Positions 4,059-53,420 are shown, numbered from the stretch's first letter. The stretch: DNA of 64,000 nt from an uncultured Candidatus Saccharibacteria bacterium (GCA_964634365.1 CAZWJU010000002.1:167150-231149), one strand, 5' to 3'. The notes: a model not told the origin generated them from the sequence alone. Numbers and translations: made by a program.

Positions 4059-4253
4059 GTCGGGGTGCCGGGTGAGCCGTGTGAGGGAACCCTGTGGGTG
4101 GACGGCGCAAGACCTTTTGAGATATCTTTACGAATATTTGAAGTAAAGTATCCAAAAGGTGTACAGGTTCTGTAAGAACTCGAACCCAGAGTCGCCTCTA
4201 TAATGATCCTCGAATACCGTTTATATACCTGGAGGTTGTTCTTAAAAGTTTTG
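4059..4253 (-). repeat. tRNA-Pro trailer element: degenerate direct copy of tRNA-Pro 3' half (aggcgactctgggttcgagttc) plus exact 14-nt copy of the tRNA 3' end (gtcggggtgccggg at 4059-4072), with a 70% GC segment in between
   Basis: Direct sequence comparison with tRNA-Pro at 4254-4326; spurious 114-aa ORF 4049..4393 overlies it. Confidence 0.6.
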
Positions 4254-4326
4254 TCGGGGTGCCGGGATTCGAACCCGGAGTCGCCTGTTCCCAAAACAGG
4301 AATGTTAGCCGTTACACTACACCCCG
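4254..4326 (-). tRNA. tRNA-Pro (anticodon TGG), no encoded CCA
   Basis: Reverse complement folds as cggggtg/caccccg acceptor, anticodon stem cctgt/acagg with loop tttggga, T-arm ccggg-ttcgaat-cccgg; 73 nt. Confidence 0.8.
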
Positions 4327-4418
4327 ACAAAACTTTCAAAATACATAACTTACACAAAACTAGCTTGTAGGGCTCAGTATAGCCGAGATACATATAATCT
4401 TCAAGTTTTTTATAAATT

Positions 4419-4595
4419 GTGCGGGATAGGAGAATCGGTCACAAATAATTTTTATTACATAAAATTTTCGCGACCCCGACTCAGCGACAAGCACTCGCTT
4501 CGCTCGTCTTGTATACCGCCTCCGTCTTTCGATTCCCCTACCGCACTAAAACACAAAAGCCCGAACACTAACATGTCCGAACTTTGTGTTTTATG
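4419..4595 (-). repeat. tRNA-Gly(GCC) trailer element: hairpin, inverted tRNA-3'-like fragment (gtctttcgattcccctaccgcac on plus strand at 4520-4545), GAGTCGGGGTCGC core (plus strand 4470-4484 as reverse complement), ending in a 19-nt direct copy of the tRNA 3' end (4419-4437)
   Basis: gtgcgggataggagaatcg occurs at 4419-4437 and again as the genuine tRNA 3' end at 4596-4614. Confidence 0.6.
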
Positions 4596-4666
4596 TGCGG
4601 GATAGGAGAATCGAACTCCTGTCTCATCCTTGGCAAGGACGTGTTCTACCACTAAACCAATCCCGC
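4596..4666 (-). tRNA. tRNA-Gly (anticodon GCC), no encoded CCA
   Basis: Reverse complement: gcgggat acceptor, anticodon loop ttgccaa, T-arm ggagttcgattctcc, 3' atcccgc + discriminator A. Confidence 0.75.
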
Positions 4667-4715
4667 ATATTCTTTGTACCTTGCGATATTAACATTGAAA
4701 TCGATTTTGTGCAAA

Positions 4716-4746
4716 AGAAAAACCCTGAAAATCAGGGTTTAGTTTT
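4716..4746. terminator. Intrinsic terminator hairpin aaaccctga-aaa-tcagggttt with flanking T-run
   Basis: Perfect 9-bp inverted repeat, immediately 3' of 4748..5170(-). Confidence 0.6.
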
Positions 4747-4747
4747 T

Positions 4748-5170
4748 TTAGGCGAAGGCCTCTTCGTTTGCGAGCATAAAGAGCCTCTCTACCCACTCGG
4801 TGTATTTACCGAGTATAAAAAAGGTCAGGAGCGCAAGCACGAGCTCGATTGCCACACACTGCGTGTGTGGAAGCATTTCACGCTTGTACTTGGATGTAAG
4901 CTCTGAGCGAATGTTTGCTGCAACCTCACAAAGAGGATTATTTTCCCTTCTGTGCATTACTGCGCTCACAGCTTTTGAAAAATGAAACGAATAGTGAAAA
5001 TCGTTTTTAGAAACCCCCTCCAGAGCTTCTTCAATCCCCTTGGCCAAGGCTTTAAATTCCTTGTCATGATTTGCATCGCCAAGATTTTTGATTTCAACGA
5101 TTTTGTTTATCAGAAACGTCGTGAGCTCCTGAAAATGCCGTTTCCCGGCTTCTTGTTTTTCTACTCGCAT
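4748..5170 (-). CDS. Hypothetical protein
   Basis: 140-aa ORF with terminator right after stop; no recognisable family. Confidence 0.4.
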   Translation of the reverse strand: MRVEKQEAGKRHFQELTTFLINKIVEIKNLGDANHDKEFKALAKGIEEALEGVSKNDFHYSFHFSKAVSAVMHRRENNPLCEVAANIRSELTSKYKREMLPHTQCVAIELVLALLTFFILGKYTEWVERLFMLANEEAFA

Positions 5171-5273
5171 AAAGTGGTTTTGGGTTATTTAATTTGTTTA
5201 AAGAACATATAAAATATTACACCTGTGTTTTTATTTTGACAAGTATTTTTATTTGTTGAGTTTTGTAAAATAG

Positions 5274-5648
5274 CTAAATTATATTTTCAATAACCTTAAC
5301 TTTGGCTTTTTTGTTTACATTATCCAAAAGGACACATACCAAGTCTATTTGCCACTCTATGTCCTTTATATTCTTCTCATGTAAATATGTTGATATTGTC
5401 CTTTGTAATTTGACCAATTTAAATTGATTCATGTTTTCTTCTGGTCTTATTGTAGAATTGAAGCTCATAGACTTAACTTCTATAAAATAAATCGCTTTAT
5501 TCTTTTTTGCGATAATATCTATTTCGCCAAGTCTTCTTGTGTAATTTCTTTCAATTATTTCAAAACCATGTTTCATGAGAAACATACAAGCGATCTCCTC
5601 GCCCAATTCTCCTTTCTTTTGAGATTTTGAAGTAAAAACCTTAGGCAT
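5274..5648 (-). CDS. yraN: YraN-family (UPF0102) predicted endonuclease
   Basis: GELGEEIACMFLMKHGFEIIERNYTRRLGEIDIIAKKNKAIYFIEVKS matches the YraN core (G.E.A...L...G..I..RN....GEID.IA.....F.EVK). Confidence 0.7.
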   Translation of the reverse strand: MPKVFTSKSQKKGELGEEIACMFLMKHGFEIIERNYTRRLGEIDIIAKKNKAIYFIEVKSMSFNSTIRPEENMNQFKLVKLQRTISTYLHEKNIKDIEWQIDLVCVLLDNVNKKAKVKVIENII

Positions 5649-5768
5649 GTTTCATATGAAACTAATAATTTATGTAAAAATGATTATATTTTAGTTACAC
5701 GTGCAACTTTTCTAATAAAAAACCACTTGTTTCATGTGTAACTATTTAAATATGTTTCACGTGAAACA
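5647..5768. promoter_or_regulatory. Array of four related palindromic sites (half-site GTTTCA / GTTACA): gtttcatatgaaac, gttacacgtgcaac, gtttcatgtgtaac, atgtttcacgtgaaacat; the first overlaps the yraN start codon
   Basis: Perfect 14-bp and 18-bp palindromes read directly; spacing about 40, 35 and 25 bp in the AT-rich leader between yraN and the tRNA cluster. Confidence 0.45.
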
Positions 5769-5992
5769 TATTTTTATATAGGACATGAGTTTTCCACCTA
5801 AAAACTACTAAAATTCTACAAACCATTGAAAAATAAGGATATTTTATTGAAAAAAGACTGTGGATAAATACACAACTTGATGTCCTTTATAAACAATATA
5901 CACGCCTTTATCCACATATCATTGAAAAATAAAGTTTTTTTGTGTATAAAAGGACATTTAAACCTGCTGAACAACAGATACTTTACCTAAAT

Positions 5993-6117
5993 GTGCATCC
6001 GGAGGGATTCGAATATTACATATTCAGGTATTTTTCGCTTTTGTTGCACAAAAGATCGAAAAATCTTTCGAATACCCCCCCCCGCAAGCAAAGAAGTTTG
6101 CTTGCTCGTATGCACCA
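5993..6117 (-). pseudogene. Interrupted tRNA-like locus: 3' end shares ccggagggattcgaa with the neighbouring tRNA-Arg; T-loop appears split by a ~62-nt insertion with duplicated tattcgaa, preceded by a run of 9 G and a gcaagca/tgcttgc stem
   Basis: Reverse complement ...gcggggggggg tattcgaa agattttt...atgtaata ttcgaatccctccggatgcac; acceptor pairs gcatacg/cggatgc with one mismatch. Either an intron-containing tRNA or a decayed duplicate. Confidence 0.3.
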
Positions 6118-6120
6118 ATG

Positions 6121-6192
6121 TGCACCCGGAGGGATTCGAACCCCCAACAACGGTTCCGAAGACCGGTATGATATCCATTTCACTACGGGTGC
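6121..6192 (-). tRNA. tRNA-Arg (anticodon TCG read from loop cttcgga), no encoded CCA
   Basis: Reverse complement gcacccg-ta-gtga..tcat-a-ccggt-cttcgga-accgt-tgtt-ggggg-ttcgaat-ccctc-cgggtgc-a; 72 nt; one 27-43 mismatch. Confidence 0.6.
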
Positions 6193-6270
6193 AGTAAAAT
6201 CAGTATAAGCTTTATATAATAAATTGCAAAATAAGGTTTTCCTGATATAATCCATTTTATATTAATAATC

Positions 6271-6341
6271 GCGGGATTAGTTAAATGGTATAACTTCAGT
6301 TTTCCAAACTGAAATCAAGGGTTCGATTCCCTTATCCCGCA
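6271..6341 (+). tRNA. tRNA-Gly (anticodon TCC; alternative register would give CCA), no encoded CCA
   Basis: gcgggat-ta-gtta-aatggta-taac-t-tcagt-tttccaa-actga-aatc-aaggg-ttcgatt-ccctt-atcccgc-a; shares acceptor stem with tRNA-Gly(GCC). Confidence 0.65.
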
Positions 6342-6470
6342 CAAATAATTTTATAGGGATAGTGAGCAAACTGCTTTGCTCACGGAAGGGAATCGAAAGA
6401 CTTTTCCATACAAGCGAAGCGAGACGGAAAAGTACCTGGCTATGTAATAGCCGATTCCCTTATCCCGCAC
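6342..6470 (+). repeat. tRNA-Gly(TCC) trailer element: inverted partial copy of the tRNA 3' end with embedded hairpin (gtgagcaaaCTGCtttgctcac), GCGAAGCGAG motif, ending with a 20-nt direct copy of the tRNA 3' end (6451-6470) 10 nt upstream of the cca start
   Basis: ccgattcccttatcccgcac at 6451-6470 versus tRNA 3' end ttcgattcccttatcccgcac at 6321-6341; gggaatcgaaagac and atacaagcgaagcgag shared with the Gly(GCC) trailer. Confidence 0.6.
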
Positions 6471-6480
6471 AAAATGCTCT

Positions 6481-7959
6481 ATGAGCAAAACACACGAAAT
6501 TAAAAAAGAATCCATACCTACTGAGATATTGGATATATTGAAAACTCTTGAAAGTTCTGGGTTTGAGGCTTTTATCGTAGGTGGCTGTGTTCGTGACTTA
6601 CTACTAAATCGTAAACCAAAAGATTGGGATATAACAACAAATGCAATACCAGAAGAAATAATACCTTTGTATGAAAAAACAGTTTACGAAAATACCTTTG
6701 GTACCGTTGCTGTAATACTAGAAGATAGTGAAGATAAAACACTTAGACAAATAGAGATAACTCCTTATAGAACAGAAGGGAAGTATTCTGACAAAAGACA
6801 CCCGGATACAGTGTCCTTTAGTAAAGATATAAAAGATGATTTAGCCAGAAGAGACTTTACGGTAAATGCTCTTGCCTACAACCCCTCTAGAAGTCAATTA
6901 ATTGACCTTTTTGAGGGTATAAAGGACATAGAGGTCAAAACTATAAGGACAGTCGGCAATCCTTCTGACAGGTTCTCTGAAGACGCTTTACGCATGATCA
7001 GGGCGATTCGTTTTTCTTGTGAACTTGGTTTTGCTGTGGATAACGAAACACTTCAGGCAATTGTGGAAAACGCACAAAATATTTCAGAAATTTCTACAGA
7101 AAGAATTAGAGACGAATTTGTAAAAATAATAATGTCCAAAGAGCCGGTGATAGGTGTTGCTATGCTCCAAAAAACTGGGATGCTTAAATACATAATCCCA
7201 GAACTAGAAGAGGGTATAGGGTGTGAACAGGGAGGTGCGCACAAATACAATGTATATGAGCACTTACTCCAGGCACTCCAACACTCTGCTGACAAAAACT
7301 GGCCACTAGAGATCAGACTCTCAGCGCTCTTTCACGATATCGGTAAGCCAAAAACTCGAAGAAAGGGAGTCAAGAAGGCGTATACATTCTATGGGCACGA
7401 AGTTGTTGGAGCAAGGATGGTTAAGGTGATTATGGAGAGACTAAAGTTCCCGAAAGATACAAGCGAGCTAGTGACAAAGCTAGTAAGACAACACATGTTC
7501 TTCTCTGACACAGAACAAATATCACTTTCTGCTGTACGAAGAATTGTGCGGAATGTAGGAGTGGAAAATATTTGGACACTTATGAATGTGCGTGAGTGTG
7601 ATCGTGTGGGAATGGCAAAAGTAGAAGCTCCATATCGATTGCGTAAATATCATGCAATGATCGAGGAGGTTCTGCGTGATCCGATATCTGTTTCGCAACT
7701 TGTGGTAGATGGAAATATTTTGATGGGTGAACTCAATGTGAAGCCCGGACCTCGCATGGGCTGGATACTAAACTCACTTCTAGAAGAAGTGCTCGATGAC
7801 CCAGCAAAAAATACTCGCGAGTATCTGGATAAAAGAGTAGGGGAACTGAACGAGTTGGAAGATAAAAGTTTGAAATTGTTAGCTGACAAAGCTAAGCAAA
7901 CAAAAGATGAACTAGAGGAAAAAGAGATCGAGGAATTACACAAGAAGCATAGAGTATAA
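6481..7959 (+). CDS. cca: CCA-adding tRNA nucleotidyltransferase (class II pol-beta NTase + HD domain)
   Basis: N-terminal GGCVRDLLL..KDWDITT nucleotidyltransferase motif, RDFTVNA, C-terminal HD (FHDIGKP); needed because none of the tRNA genes encode CCA. Confidence 0.8.
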   Translation: MSKTHEIKKESIPTEILDILKTLESSGFEAFIVGGCVRDLLLNRKPKDWDITTNAIPEEIIPLYEKTVYENTFGTVAVILEDSEDKTLRQIEITPYRTEGKYSDKRHPDTVSFSKDIKDDLARRDFTVNALAYNPSRSQLIDLFEGIKDIEVKTIRTVGNPSDRFSEDALRMIRAIRFSCELGFAVDNETLQAIVENAQNISEISTERIRDEFVKIIMSKEPVIGVAMLQKTGMLKYIIPELEEGIGCEQGGAHKYNVYEHLLQALQHSADKNWPLEIRLSALFHDIGKPKTRRKGVKKAYTFYGHEVVGARMVKVIMERLKFPKDTSELVTKLVRQHMFFSDTEQISLSAVRRIVRNVGVENIWTLMNVRECDRVGMAKVEAPYRLRKYHAMIEEVLRDPISVSQLVVDGNILMGELNVKPGPRMGWILNSLLEEVLDDPAKNTREYLDKRVGELNELEDKSLKLLADKAKQTKDELEEKEIEELHKKHRV

Positions 7960-46930: not shown

Positions 46931-47003
46931 CCTCCCGTAGCTCAGTCGGTAGAGCAGCTCCCTTTTAAGGAGAGGGTCGTAGGTTCGATTCCTACCGGGA
47001 GGA
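46931..47003 (+). tRNA. tRNA-Lys (anticodon TTT), no encoded CCA
   Basis: cctcccg-ta-gctc-agtcggta-gagc-a-gctcc-cttttaa-ggaga-gggtc-gtagg-ttcgatt-cctac-cgggagg-a. Confidence 0.7.
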
Positions 47004-47180
47004 CAAGGTCGAAAAAGTGGACTGCTCCACTTTTGAGTACACTTGTCCTAGACGGAAACATGTTTCGTTAGCAGACGAAACAGTTGAGTCGGGGTCGCAG
47101 AAAAATACGAGCGGCGGCGAGTATTTTATCTGTGACGACACATTCACTCTTAAATAAGGAAAGATTCCTACCAAGATAAT
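47004..47180 (+). repeat. tRNA-Lys trailer element: hairpin aaaagtggaCTGCtccactttt, core GAGTCGGGGTCGC (47086-47098) ...ACGAGCGGCGGCGAGTA..TGTGACGACA, ending with a 10-nt copy of the tRNA 3' region (gattcctacc, 47163-47172)
   Basis: Aligned by eye with the element after tRNA-Arg(GCG) (53146-53300) and after tRNA-Gly(GCC). Confidence 0.55.
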
Positions 47181-53145: not shown

Positions 53146-53420
53146 CATATAAGAAAAAGACTGGACTGCTCCAGCCTTTTTCTTATATGTGACGGGCGCA
53201 GTGATGTTTTATTAGAGAACAAAACCACGAGCCGGGGTCGAGAAATTTTGCGAGTGGCGACGAGTAAAATATTCGTGACCACAAGGTGGTATAATGAGCA
53301 GACTTAGTAACTTGTGACCACATTAAATCTCTATGTGACGACAAGAAATTGTTTGTAGCCACACTACTAAAAGTCGCGATAAATTTCCATCAGGAAATTT
53401 ACTTGTGATCATACCTAAAA
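53146..53420 (+). repeat. tRNA-Arg trailer element expanded into an iteron-like array: 16-bp-stem hairpin with loop actggaCTGCtccagc (53146-53193), core GAGCCGGGGTCG (53229-53240)...GCGAGTGGCGACGAGTA, then 5-6 copies of (T)TGTGAC(N)ACA-like sites
   Basis: Sites read at 53180(tatgtgacggg), 53271(ttcgtgaccaca), 53311(cttgtgaccaca), 53332(tatgtgacgaca), 53356(ttgtagccaca), 53401(cttgtgatcata); followed by an AT-rich stretch to 53610. Confidence 0.55.

Follow-up and report, generated by a model that had tools for sequence, protein, structure and literature searches.

Inverted and direct copies of one target sequence occur together in the attachment (att) sites of the CTX-phi type, belonging to integrative mobile elements exploiting Xer (IMEX), where they lie about 100 nt apart and fold on one strand so as to mimic the target duplex; heterologous elements pile up in tandem at the regenerated site. 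At transfer RNA (tRNA) genes, a repeat running from the T-loop to the 3' end is reportedly the classic identity block of T-loop-targeting integrases, an account said to be that of Williams in 2002. Structured RNA can also neighbour tRNAs: theta ribozymes, which resemble that of hepatitis delta virus (HDV), abut the 3' ends of phage tRNAs (PMC10879173), and a synthetic RNase P riboswitch controls tRNA processing (PMC7897497). Here we analyse a 64,000-nt stretch of DNA (hereafter the window) from an uncultured Candidatus Saccharibacteria bacterium (GCA_964634365.1 CAZWJU010000002.1:167150-231149), in which the trailer of a tRNA-Gly(UCC) gene carries an inverted and then a direct copy of the tRNA 3' end and leads into cca, the gene of the CCA-adding tRNA nucleotidyltransferase. 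With a probability of roughly 0.55, the segment 6343-6473 is one copy of a family of structured tRNA-trailer elements of about 100-170 nt. The family itself exists, is strictly linked to and co-oriented with tRNA genes, and is not tied to cca.

The tRNA gene is identified by a score of 72.9 bits against a threshold of 29 (Rfam RF00005, tested on 6271-6341) and by the anticodon that ARAGORN assigns, Gly(tcc). Its last 18 nt, together with 4 nt of trailer, recur exactly downstream as a 22-nt direct repeat whose two copies are referred to as DR1 and DR2 (Table 1); the 20-mer named in the original prediction, ccgattcccttatcccgcac, occupies 6451-6470, and the ATG of cca at 6481 lies 10 nt past its last position. 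Between the direct copies, an inverted copy of the same tRNA end, spanning 6356-6395, is divided at the acceptor/T-stem boundary by the conserved hairpin H1 into the inverted repeats IR-a and IR-b. The latter, AAGGGAATCGAA, shows 100% complementarity to 6322-6333 and to 6452-6461 and continues into a conserved TCGAAAG junction, followed by the hairpins H2, whose variable tip here holds GCGAAGCGAG at 6414-6423, and H3. Repeat analysis and tRNA calls therefore confirmed the anatomy first proposed, namely tRNA-Gly, an inverted copy split by a hairpin, a 20-nt direct repeat and cca 10 nt further on. The trailer is not a product of chance: by itself it folds at -46.6 kcal/mol (z = -5.5 versus shuffles), and its architecture recurs elsewhere some 155 times.

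Table 1. Positions of the tRNA-trailer features and neighbouring genes, counted from the first letter of the window.
Feature	Position	Strand	Description
Element 3' of tRNA-Gly(GCC)	4418-4594	-	Related element; tRNA at 4596-4666; 20-nt direct copy at 4418-4437
Sister element 3' of tRNA-Arg(UCG)	5990-6116	-	Same architecture, mirror orientation
tRNA-Arg(UCG)	6121-6192	-	Divergent neighbour of tRNA-Gly(UCC); 3' end 6117-6140
Predicted sigma-70-like promoter of tRNA-Gly(UCC)	6224-6251	+	TTGCAA-16-TATAAT, upstream TG; strong
tRNA-Gly(UCC)	6271-6341/6342	+	ARAGORN and Rfam; CCA not encoded
DR1	6324-6345	+	First repeat copy: the tRNA's own T-loop C56 to discriminator, plus 4 nt
IR-a	6356-6361	+	GGGATA; partial inverted copy of acceptor 3' strand (TATCCC)
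H1	6362-6383	+	Conserved hairpin; perfect 9-bp stem, CUGC loop
IR-b	6386-6397	+	AAGGGAATCGAA; inverted copy of T-loop positions 56-60 and T-stem 3' strand
H2	6400-6433	+	Hairpin; conserved base CUUUUC/GAAAAG, variable tip
Joiner and hairpin H3	6434-6452 (H3 6438-6452)	+	UACC joiner, then GGCUAU-GUA-AUAGCC; joiner and GUA loop conserved
DR2	6452-6473	+	Exact direct copy of tRNA 3' end; pairs with IR-b and IR-a, closing the element
Small AUG-holding hairpin	6475-6487	+	UGCUC-UAU-GAGCA; part of the conserved tRNA-cca junction, not of the element
cca	6481-7959	+	CCA-adding tRNA nucleotidyltransferase; PolyA_pol head, RNA-binding, HD and tRNA_NucTran2_2 domains
Trailer 3' of tRNA-Lys(UUU)	47005-47172	+	Degenerate, family B; residual 10-nt copy GATTCCTACC at 47163-47172

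The size of the family was established with a covariance model (R1), built from a seed alignment of 19 copies taken from the window and 80 related cca loci. Membership comprised H1, IR-b, the TCGAAAG junction, H2, YACCYG, H3 and a tRNA-end copy, the whole lying immediately behind a tRNA of the same orientation. The best match of the model, 6351-6470 (121 bits), is itself a seed sequence, and 5993-6116 on the minus strand scored 105 bits. Overall, the model recovered about 155 copies in relatives and metagenomes, among which, beside these two, are about 130 non-seed matches. In the relatives, 55 matches were found in 1.28 Mb, all except three lying no more than 48 nt downstream of a co-oriented tRNA (52/55). 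A pattern scan of metagenome contigs yielded 80 more loci, in which the covariance model then gave 102 matches; 57 of 81 pattern matches fell within 150 nt after a co-oriented tRNA, covering 27 anticodon species, and the remainder were mostly second or third tandem copies or lay at contig edges, a few being orphans or standing behind tRNA remnants. At least 28 anticodon species carry the element, and the genes downstream are of any kind and unrelated to one another.

The common plan consists of the tRNA 3' end (C56 to discriminator+1), an optional terminator-like hairpin, the inverted copy, usually split by a conserved H1, the TCGAAAG junction with H2 and H3, and the direct copy. Three core families (A, B and C) differ but have these arms in common. 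When Rfam 15 was run on all trailers, both at gathering score and at E<=10, only tRNA passed and nothing credible fell over the trailers; the family pattern had no match in viral contigs, and literature searches retrieved no description of it. The view of the original prediction that the arrangement was undescribed has therefore held. The window, whose genes include PNPase, PolA and PBP1, represents a cellular genome of the candidate phyla radiation (CPR), with relatives among Candidatus Nomurabacteria/Paceibacterota, and the trailer elements constitute a large, widespread and apparently undescribed family in CPR bacteria of the Paceibacteria/Nomurabacteria type. A minimal 62-nt version without the three-way junction was also seen behind a tRNA-Arg (locus L013, 3766-3827, minus strand), in which a hairpin and the inverted copy of the acceptor are followed by an H1-like hairpin (loop CTGC) and by 12 nt copied from the acceptor.

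The core is conserved as a fold on the tRNA-sense strand. Covariation appears in all four helices of the 19-copy alignment, and in the 102-sequence alignment, which is biased toward the structure of the covariance model to which it was fitted, 96.1% of the stem cells are paired and both partners vary in every one of the 24 pairs, compared with at most 48% paired in control alignments slid by 1-3 columns. Helix 1 (H1) is 98% paired, with compensatory changes in nine of nine pairs, and helix 3 (H2) is 99.8% paired. Trailer covariation, which bears on the competing structure first proposed for this locus, is thus strong. From the excess of G·U pairs (71) over A·C mismatches (19), the strand that folds is the tRNA-sense one, whether in RNA or in DNA form. 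Differences among Pro-linked copies across genomes are mainly compensatory. Unpaired letters are conserved as well (TCGAAAG, CUUUUC/GAAAAG, YACCYG, the GUA loop and the CUKC loop), and these loops and the junction argue against the element being junk.

A structured RNA lying directly 3' of tRNAs, with a conserved junction, might also serve to trim the 3' trailer of the tRNA, acting as a self-cleaving ribozyme or as a nuclease guide, and theta ribozymes abutting phage tRNAs offer a precedent (PMC10879173). Such an activity is highly improbable here, since no ribozyme family (hammerhead, HDV-like/theta, twister, pistol, hatchet) was matched in Rfam even at E<=10, the strands of the three-way junction are by inspection unfit for hammerhead or HDV cores, the gap to the tRNA ranges from 0 to 48 nt, often with a terminator between, and the letters at the tRNA/element boundary are not conserved. 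The lengths of the junction strands likewise led us to reject its reading as a hammerhead, HDV or kink-turn motif. A group I intron was rejected because tRNA-Gly is uninterrupted, the element measures about 128 nt where the P3-P9 core of an intron needs at least about 200 nt, and RF00028 gave no match at E<=10; the group I introns reported from Patescibacteria tRNAs interrupt the anticodon loop at position 35/36 and do not concern trailers (bioRxiv 10.1101/2025.07.03.662931).

Both arms match the cognate tRNA. Between tRNA end and element end, the longest word in common measures 11 nt in the median for cognate combinations, as against 5 nt for non-cognate ones (n=111). Over positions 59-65, to which the comparison was limited so as to exclude the universal TCGA, the inverted copy pairs with its own tRNA at a rate of 0.85 (0.90 counting G·U) versus 0.50 with other tRNAs, and the direct copy is 0.86 identical to the tRNA. 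The inverted copy is matched equally well whether the direct copy reaches the discriminator or only spans the T-stem. An apparent advantage of the inverted over the direct copy in following the tRNA proved to be an artefact: three of the ten positions compared belong to the universal T-loop TCGA, which coincides with the TCGAAAG of the element, and the two copies are equal on 59-65. Such identity between arms and tRNA is exactly what a competition for pairing, or a templated origin, requires.

Several other identities were considered for the copies and discarded on inspection. A tandem tRNA pseudogene does not fit, as the inverted copy, unlike the 5' strands of the tRNA, is complementary to the discriminator, to position 74 and to T-loop positions 56-60; nor does a retroviral-type primer-binding site, as the complement spans the gene-encoded trailer and not CCA. 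In a guide of the TnpB/Cas12 type (scaffold and 19-nt 3' guide after a GGTT motif), the would-be guide is internally paired and no nuclease gene is adjacent, and the two guides of an IS110 bridge RNA bind adjacent segments, not one and the same. An origin of the copy from RNA was rejected given that the repeat at times runs 7-13 nt into the trailer.

Within the window itself, some such trailer stands behind six of the seven tRNAs. The element of the divergent tRNA-Arg(UCG) is 82% complementary to 6365-6460 of the Gly(UCC) element and has its own 24-nt copy of the Arg tRNA end (5990-6013) with its own matching inverted copy. The element behind tRNA-Gly(GCC) has a terminator-like hairpin (4556-4585), an unsplit inverted copy (4530-4546) and a core with the helix GAGTCGGGGTCG...GTGAC, and the trailers of tRNA-Pro and tRNA-Arg(GCG) contain, respectively, a 14-nt copy of the tRNA end and a related core.

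The direct repeat has defined edges. It starts at T-loop C56 (23 cases), at G57 (12) or at position 60/61 (11), and its end falls at discriminator+1 plus 0-4 nt, in rare cases as far as +13, with a modal length of 19 nt. The element has the look of an insertion in which some 19 nt of the tRNA gene were duplicated. The alternative offered in the original prediction, an att remnant, draws on this very feature: an integrase-mediated element targeting the stretch from T-loop to 3' end would leave attL and attR behind after deletion of its interior, and the tandem arrays and the 880-nt islet at a transfer-messenger RNA (tmRNA) described below could be read in the same way. We nonetheless regard such a scar as improbable. 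No integrase was seen near any inspected copy, and the insert amounts to only 100-170 nt (here 106 nt between the repeats, with only short overlapping open reading frames (ORFs), and with cca and UPF0102 as flanking genes). Furthermore, the same core occurs at no fewer than 28 tRNA species with arms matched to each, its structure covaries strongly, and the T-stem 5' arm expected of attR is absent beside DR2, where hairpin H3 stands instead. What survives of the att proposal is thus the extent of the direct repeat; it leaves the missing integrase, the conserved fold and the tRNA-matched inverted copy unexplained.

Alternatively, the element might be a selfish or neutral repeat at the level of DNA, either palindromic, similar to transposable elements of the miniature inverted-repeat kind (MITEs) or repetitive extragenic palindromic (REP) sequences, or miniature and integrative, which duplicates about 19 bp of its target between T-loop and 3' end and has no role as RNA, its fold being relevant only to a single-stranded DNA intermediate or kept by palindrome correction. 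We consider this unlikely. Presence varies among relatives, in which no more than about one in five of the four tRNAs linked to cca has a family-A copy, and the closest of them (cca 84% identical) has an identical tRNA-Gly(UCC) followed by a terminator only. The defined repeat edges, the many decayed, truncated or orphan copies, the frequent position of the element after a terminator, and the long perfect palindromes that inverted copy and terminator form with the tRNA end all agree with it. So do the tandem and heterologous arrays: at one locus tRNA-Pro is followed by two 122-nt units, and at another the order behind a tRNA is family-B element, repeat, family-A element, repeat, two families thus having one repeat in common. 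Moreover, at one locus the element follows a copied tmRNA 3' end, which an 880-nt islet parts from the tmRNA itself, DNA cargo being flanked there by the same kind of repeat.

The divergence of the copies speaks against this DNA-level account. Core identity within one contig (0.58) does not exceed that between contigs (0.58-0.60), unlike what is expected of a transposing family, and recent intragenomic transposition was rejected on these grounds. Neither a transposase nor an integrase was found near the element in the window, and searches of the loci for larger repeat-flanked islands found none. Taken with the compensatory differences and the absence from viral contigs, these observations suggest that the elements are old and structurally constrained and not recently transposing. 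The conservation of unpaired loop and junction letters points in the same direction, and arms that differ with each tRNA species are not a product of cut-and-paste or integrase chemistry. The properties of a MITE are missing on two counts, as the arms copy the neighbouring tRNA and are not element-specific, and copies within a contig are no more alike than those of different contigs.

Two side observations concern these arrays. In the tmRNA locus (L156, 1964-3415) the order is tmRNA, the 880-nt islet, the tmRNA 3'-end copy, a hairpin of terminator type, a family-A element and a further partial copy; the islet has a 188-aa ORF, NYN/LabA-like as judged by eye, so that protein-coding cargo can be flanked by the same kind of repeat. 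Contigs L086, L087, L103, L104, L111, L123, L134, L151 and L158 begin or end inside an element or tandem array, in keeping with the DNA-level account, which suggests that arrays, or presence/absence variants, break metagenome assemblies.

Returning to the reading of the segment as a structured tRNA-trailer element, modelling predicts two mutually exclusive folds for 6271-6480, as had been anticipated when the inverted copy was first proposed to compete with the tRNA. The minimum-energy fold (-73.4 kcal/mol) is nested, with the 5' strands of the tRNA paired to the downstream copy and its 3' strand paired to the inverted copy; a near-isoenergetic alternative (-70.0 kcal/mol) combines the tRNA cloverleaf with a self-contained element. 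If the downstream copy is left out, the inverted copy is predicted to take hold of the 3' strand of the tRNA, for which reason the direct copy may be read as an internal decoy for the antisense segment. We would put at about even odds the proposal that the element is transcribed with tRNA-Gly and cca and acts by base pairing and decoy. In such a mechanism, transcription from the promoter at 6224-6251 would yield tRNA-Gly, element and cca together; the inverted copy could seize the 3' strand of the tRNA; the direct copy, by occupying the inverted copy, would leave the tRNA free to fold; and the transcript would still show a tRNA-end-like helix beside cca.

A more elaborate possibility, which we hold to be quite unlikely, is that the elements are natural conditional switches gating maturation of the preceding tRNA, each consisting of an antisense to the T-arm/acceptor 3' strand of its own tRNA, a decoy, and a three-way-junction core that would respond to a ligand, a protein or a physical cue. 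Depending on the cue, the inverted copy would pair with the decoy, and the tRNA would fold, or with the tRNA 3' strand, and the tRNA would be locked or degraded. The order of DR1, inverted copy and DR2 provides the two near-isoenergetic folds, competition by base pairing needs arms matched to the tRNA, junction and loops of the core are conserved, position and orientation are strictly cis, and the synthetic counterpart shows the principle to be workable (PMC7897497). Nevertheless, a terminator often precedes the element, which is patchy and dispensable across relatives; the core matches no known aptamer class; the inverted copy is made only after the tRNA, which can by then have folded; and several core families have the same kind of arms. 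In a variant of this scheme, the arms may be written from the target by a templating or homing mechanism.

Several points weigh against the reading that we prefer. Many copies are degenerate, truncated or orphaned and most tRNAs in the relatives lack the element, so that it appears dispensable. In about half of the family copies, a terminator-like hairpin intervenes between tRNA and element; such copies would be transcribed only by read-through, and the frequency of this arrangement argues against a simple regulatory role. Besides the bias of the 102-sequence alignment already mentioned, hairpin covariation and G·U excess could be partly explained by templated correction of palindromes together with strand-biased C-to-T mutation. 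No mechanism has been devised for writing a target-derived inverted copy that is split by a conserved hairpin. Finally, all statements made here on the element as RNA are ones that we infer from sequence, and the thermodynamic predictions leave out tRNA tertiary structure and modification, so that the competition between folds may never occur in vivo.

The neighbourhood of cca was of particular concern, as the original prediction had envisaged a leader through which cca senses tRNA 3' processing. Comparison of upstream regions showed that in 71 of 81 loci the first feature met upstream of cca is a tRNA of the same orientation (Arg-UCG, Gly-GCC or Gly-UCC); of the ten loci that differ, eight have no upstream sequence. 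The start codon of cca is also enclosed in a small hairpin that is conserved. The element is also probably within the cca transcript: the tRNA promoter is predicted to be strong, and neither a further promoter nor a terminator is predicted between tRNA-Gly(UCC) and cca. In particular, no intrinsic terminator was predicted on the plus strand of 6342-6480, where no T-run follows either H1 or the closing helix, and family-A copies in tRNA-cca gaps lack the terminator-like hairpin seen at many other tRNAs.

A cca-specific leader is nevertheless largely refuted by the distribution of the family, and we think it most unlikely. In 46 of 68 relatives the start codon follows a bare tRNA by 6-20 nt with no element, and an insert of 100-317 nt fills the gap in 16 of 68. 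The family stands behind any tRNA regardless of the downstream gene, and the Arg(UCG) and Gly(GCC) elements of the window are not upstream of cca. Where a family-A element does occupy the gap, the end of the direct copy is usually found 6-13 nt ahead of the start codon (window, L045, L066, L074 and L004; in L035, by exception, the end lies 64 nt upstream), and the ancestral tRNA-cca junction is therefore usually preserved; in the window it is the direct copy that reconstitutes it. The element is probably a passenger inserted in a conserved tRNA-cca operon and cotranscribed with it.

The features specific to cca are the AUG-holding hairpin and the linkage of tRNA and cca, and the element is not one of them. 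At the start codon, a stem of 4 bp or more is predicted in 60% of relatives versus 13% of shuffles, with covariation, and the equivalents differ in sequence (e.g. GTTTC..GAAAC, TGCC..GGCA). The tight spacing, together with a junction of tRNA, 10 nt and AUG that the element retains, suggests that cca mRNA may be cotranscribed with, and released from, a CCA-less tRNA precursor. As a separate observation, none of the seven tRNA genes of the window encodes CCA, each ending in the discriminator and C, after which the sequence is A/T-rich; presumably the neighbouring cca gene is therefore essential in this genome.

Some further details of the window are of note. Family B is a second core type, with the conserved helix GGGGTCGC...GTGACC, found at 4419-4530 (minus strand), 47005-47172 and 53147-53410. 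The tRNA-Pro trailer (4059-4252, minus strand) is complex, with a second partial copy of variable loop and T-arm at 4178-4197, then about 105 nt resembling a family-A variant in opposite orientation, and then the tRNA-end copy at 4059-4072. Four or five repeats of the word TGTGAC[CG]AC also lie behind tRNA-Arg(GCG). The 'tRNA-Stop(tta)' called by ARAGORN at 46931-47003 is apparently a miscall, since its anticodon loop, CTTTTAA, is by inspection that of tRNA-Lys(UUU); it was compared with Lys(CTT) in L101, and the call is not evidence of stop-codon recoding. Between tRNA-Gly(GCC) and tRNA-Arg(UCG), an ORF of the nuclease-like UPF0102/YraN family (5274-5648, minus strand) lies within the tRNA cluster. 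The four clustered tRNAs (Pro, Gly-GCC, Arg-UCG and Gly-UCC; 4253-6342) vary among close relatives (L001, L004, L005 and L007) in order, in orientation and in the member facing cca, which points to repeated rearrangement with breakpoints at tRNA genes.

If the family is as it appears, a large share of CPR tRNA genes bear a conserved folded appendage whose two arms are kept matched to the individual tRNA. We know of no mobile element, att site, ribozyme or riboswitch of such design. Two questions follow, namely what selects for the core, and what writes or maintains inverted and direct copies of each tRNA 3' end. To answer either would bring new biology to light: a novel control or processing of tRNA precursors, or a novel way of copying a target sequence into an element. 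Should the elements be switches, they would permit throttling or quality control of individual tRNA supply at the transcript level in genome-reduced CPR bacteria. On the practical side, the elements appear to break metagenome assemblies, can pass for att sites and swell the 'intergenic' space of otherwise compact genomes.

Each of the known systems to which these elements can be likened fails on defining features. The islands that tyrosine integrases bound by attL and attR at tRNA and tmRNA genes likewise have a repeat from the T-loop to or past the 3' end, leave the tRNA intact and stack in tandem with the target regenerated; unlike them, the elements measure about 100-170 nt without integrase or ORF, have a folded core common to at least 28 tRNA species, include an extra inverted copy of the target, and are highly diverged within one genome. 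The attP sites of the CTX-phi type may be called analogous in their inverted and direct target copies, whereas the elements have no dif/Xer site, are far below replicon size and differ in target with each tRNA. MITEs, REP sequences and bacterial interspersed mosaic elements (BIMEs), Correia elements and Rickettsia palindromic elements are likewise non-coding, hairpin-forming, intergenic, about 100-150 nt long and variably present among relatives; the elements described here, unlike these repeats, are strictly linked to and co-oriented with tRNA 3' ends, take their arms from the neighbouring gene and show no bursts of similar copies.

Among RNAs, theta ribozymes, the MALAT1-associated small cytoplasmic RNA (mascRNA) and the herpesvirus tRNA-microRNA-encoded RNAs (TMERs) likewise are structured and directly 3' of a tRNA, presumably in the same precursor. 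Unlike theta ribozymes, the elements have no ribozyme signature or Rfam match and reside in cellular CPR genomes, with none in viral contigs; arms derived from the tRNA are a feature of the elements, and none are noted for theta ribozymes in the passages of PMC10879173 that were consulted, where a search for 'acceptor stem' gave no match. Attenuator and riboswitch platforms, including the synthetic RNase P riboswitch (PMC7897497), likewise consist of three segments with mutually exclusive pairings, the middle one antisense to a functional RNA strand; unlike them, the element lies downstream of the RNA that it could affect and has neither a fourth segment or terminator as read-out nor a known ligand. 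To our knowledge, no natural three-segment pairing switch for tRNAs has been described.

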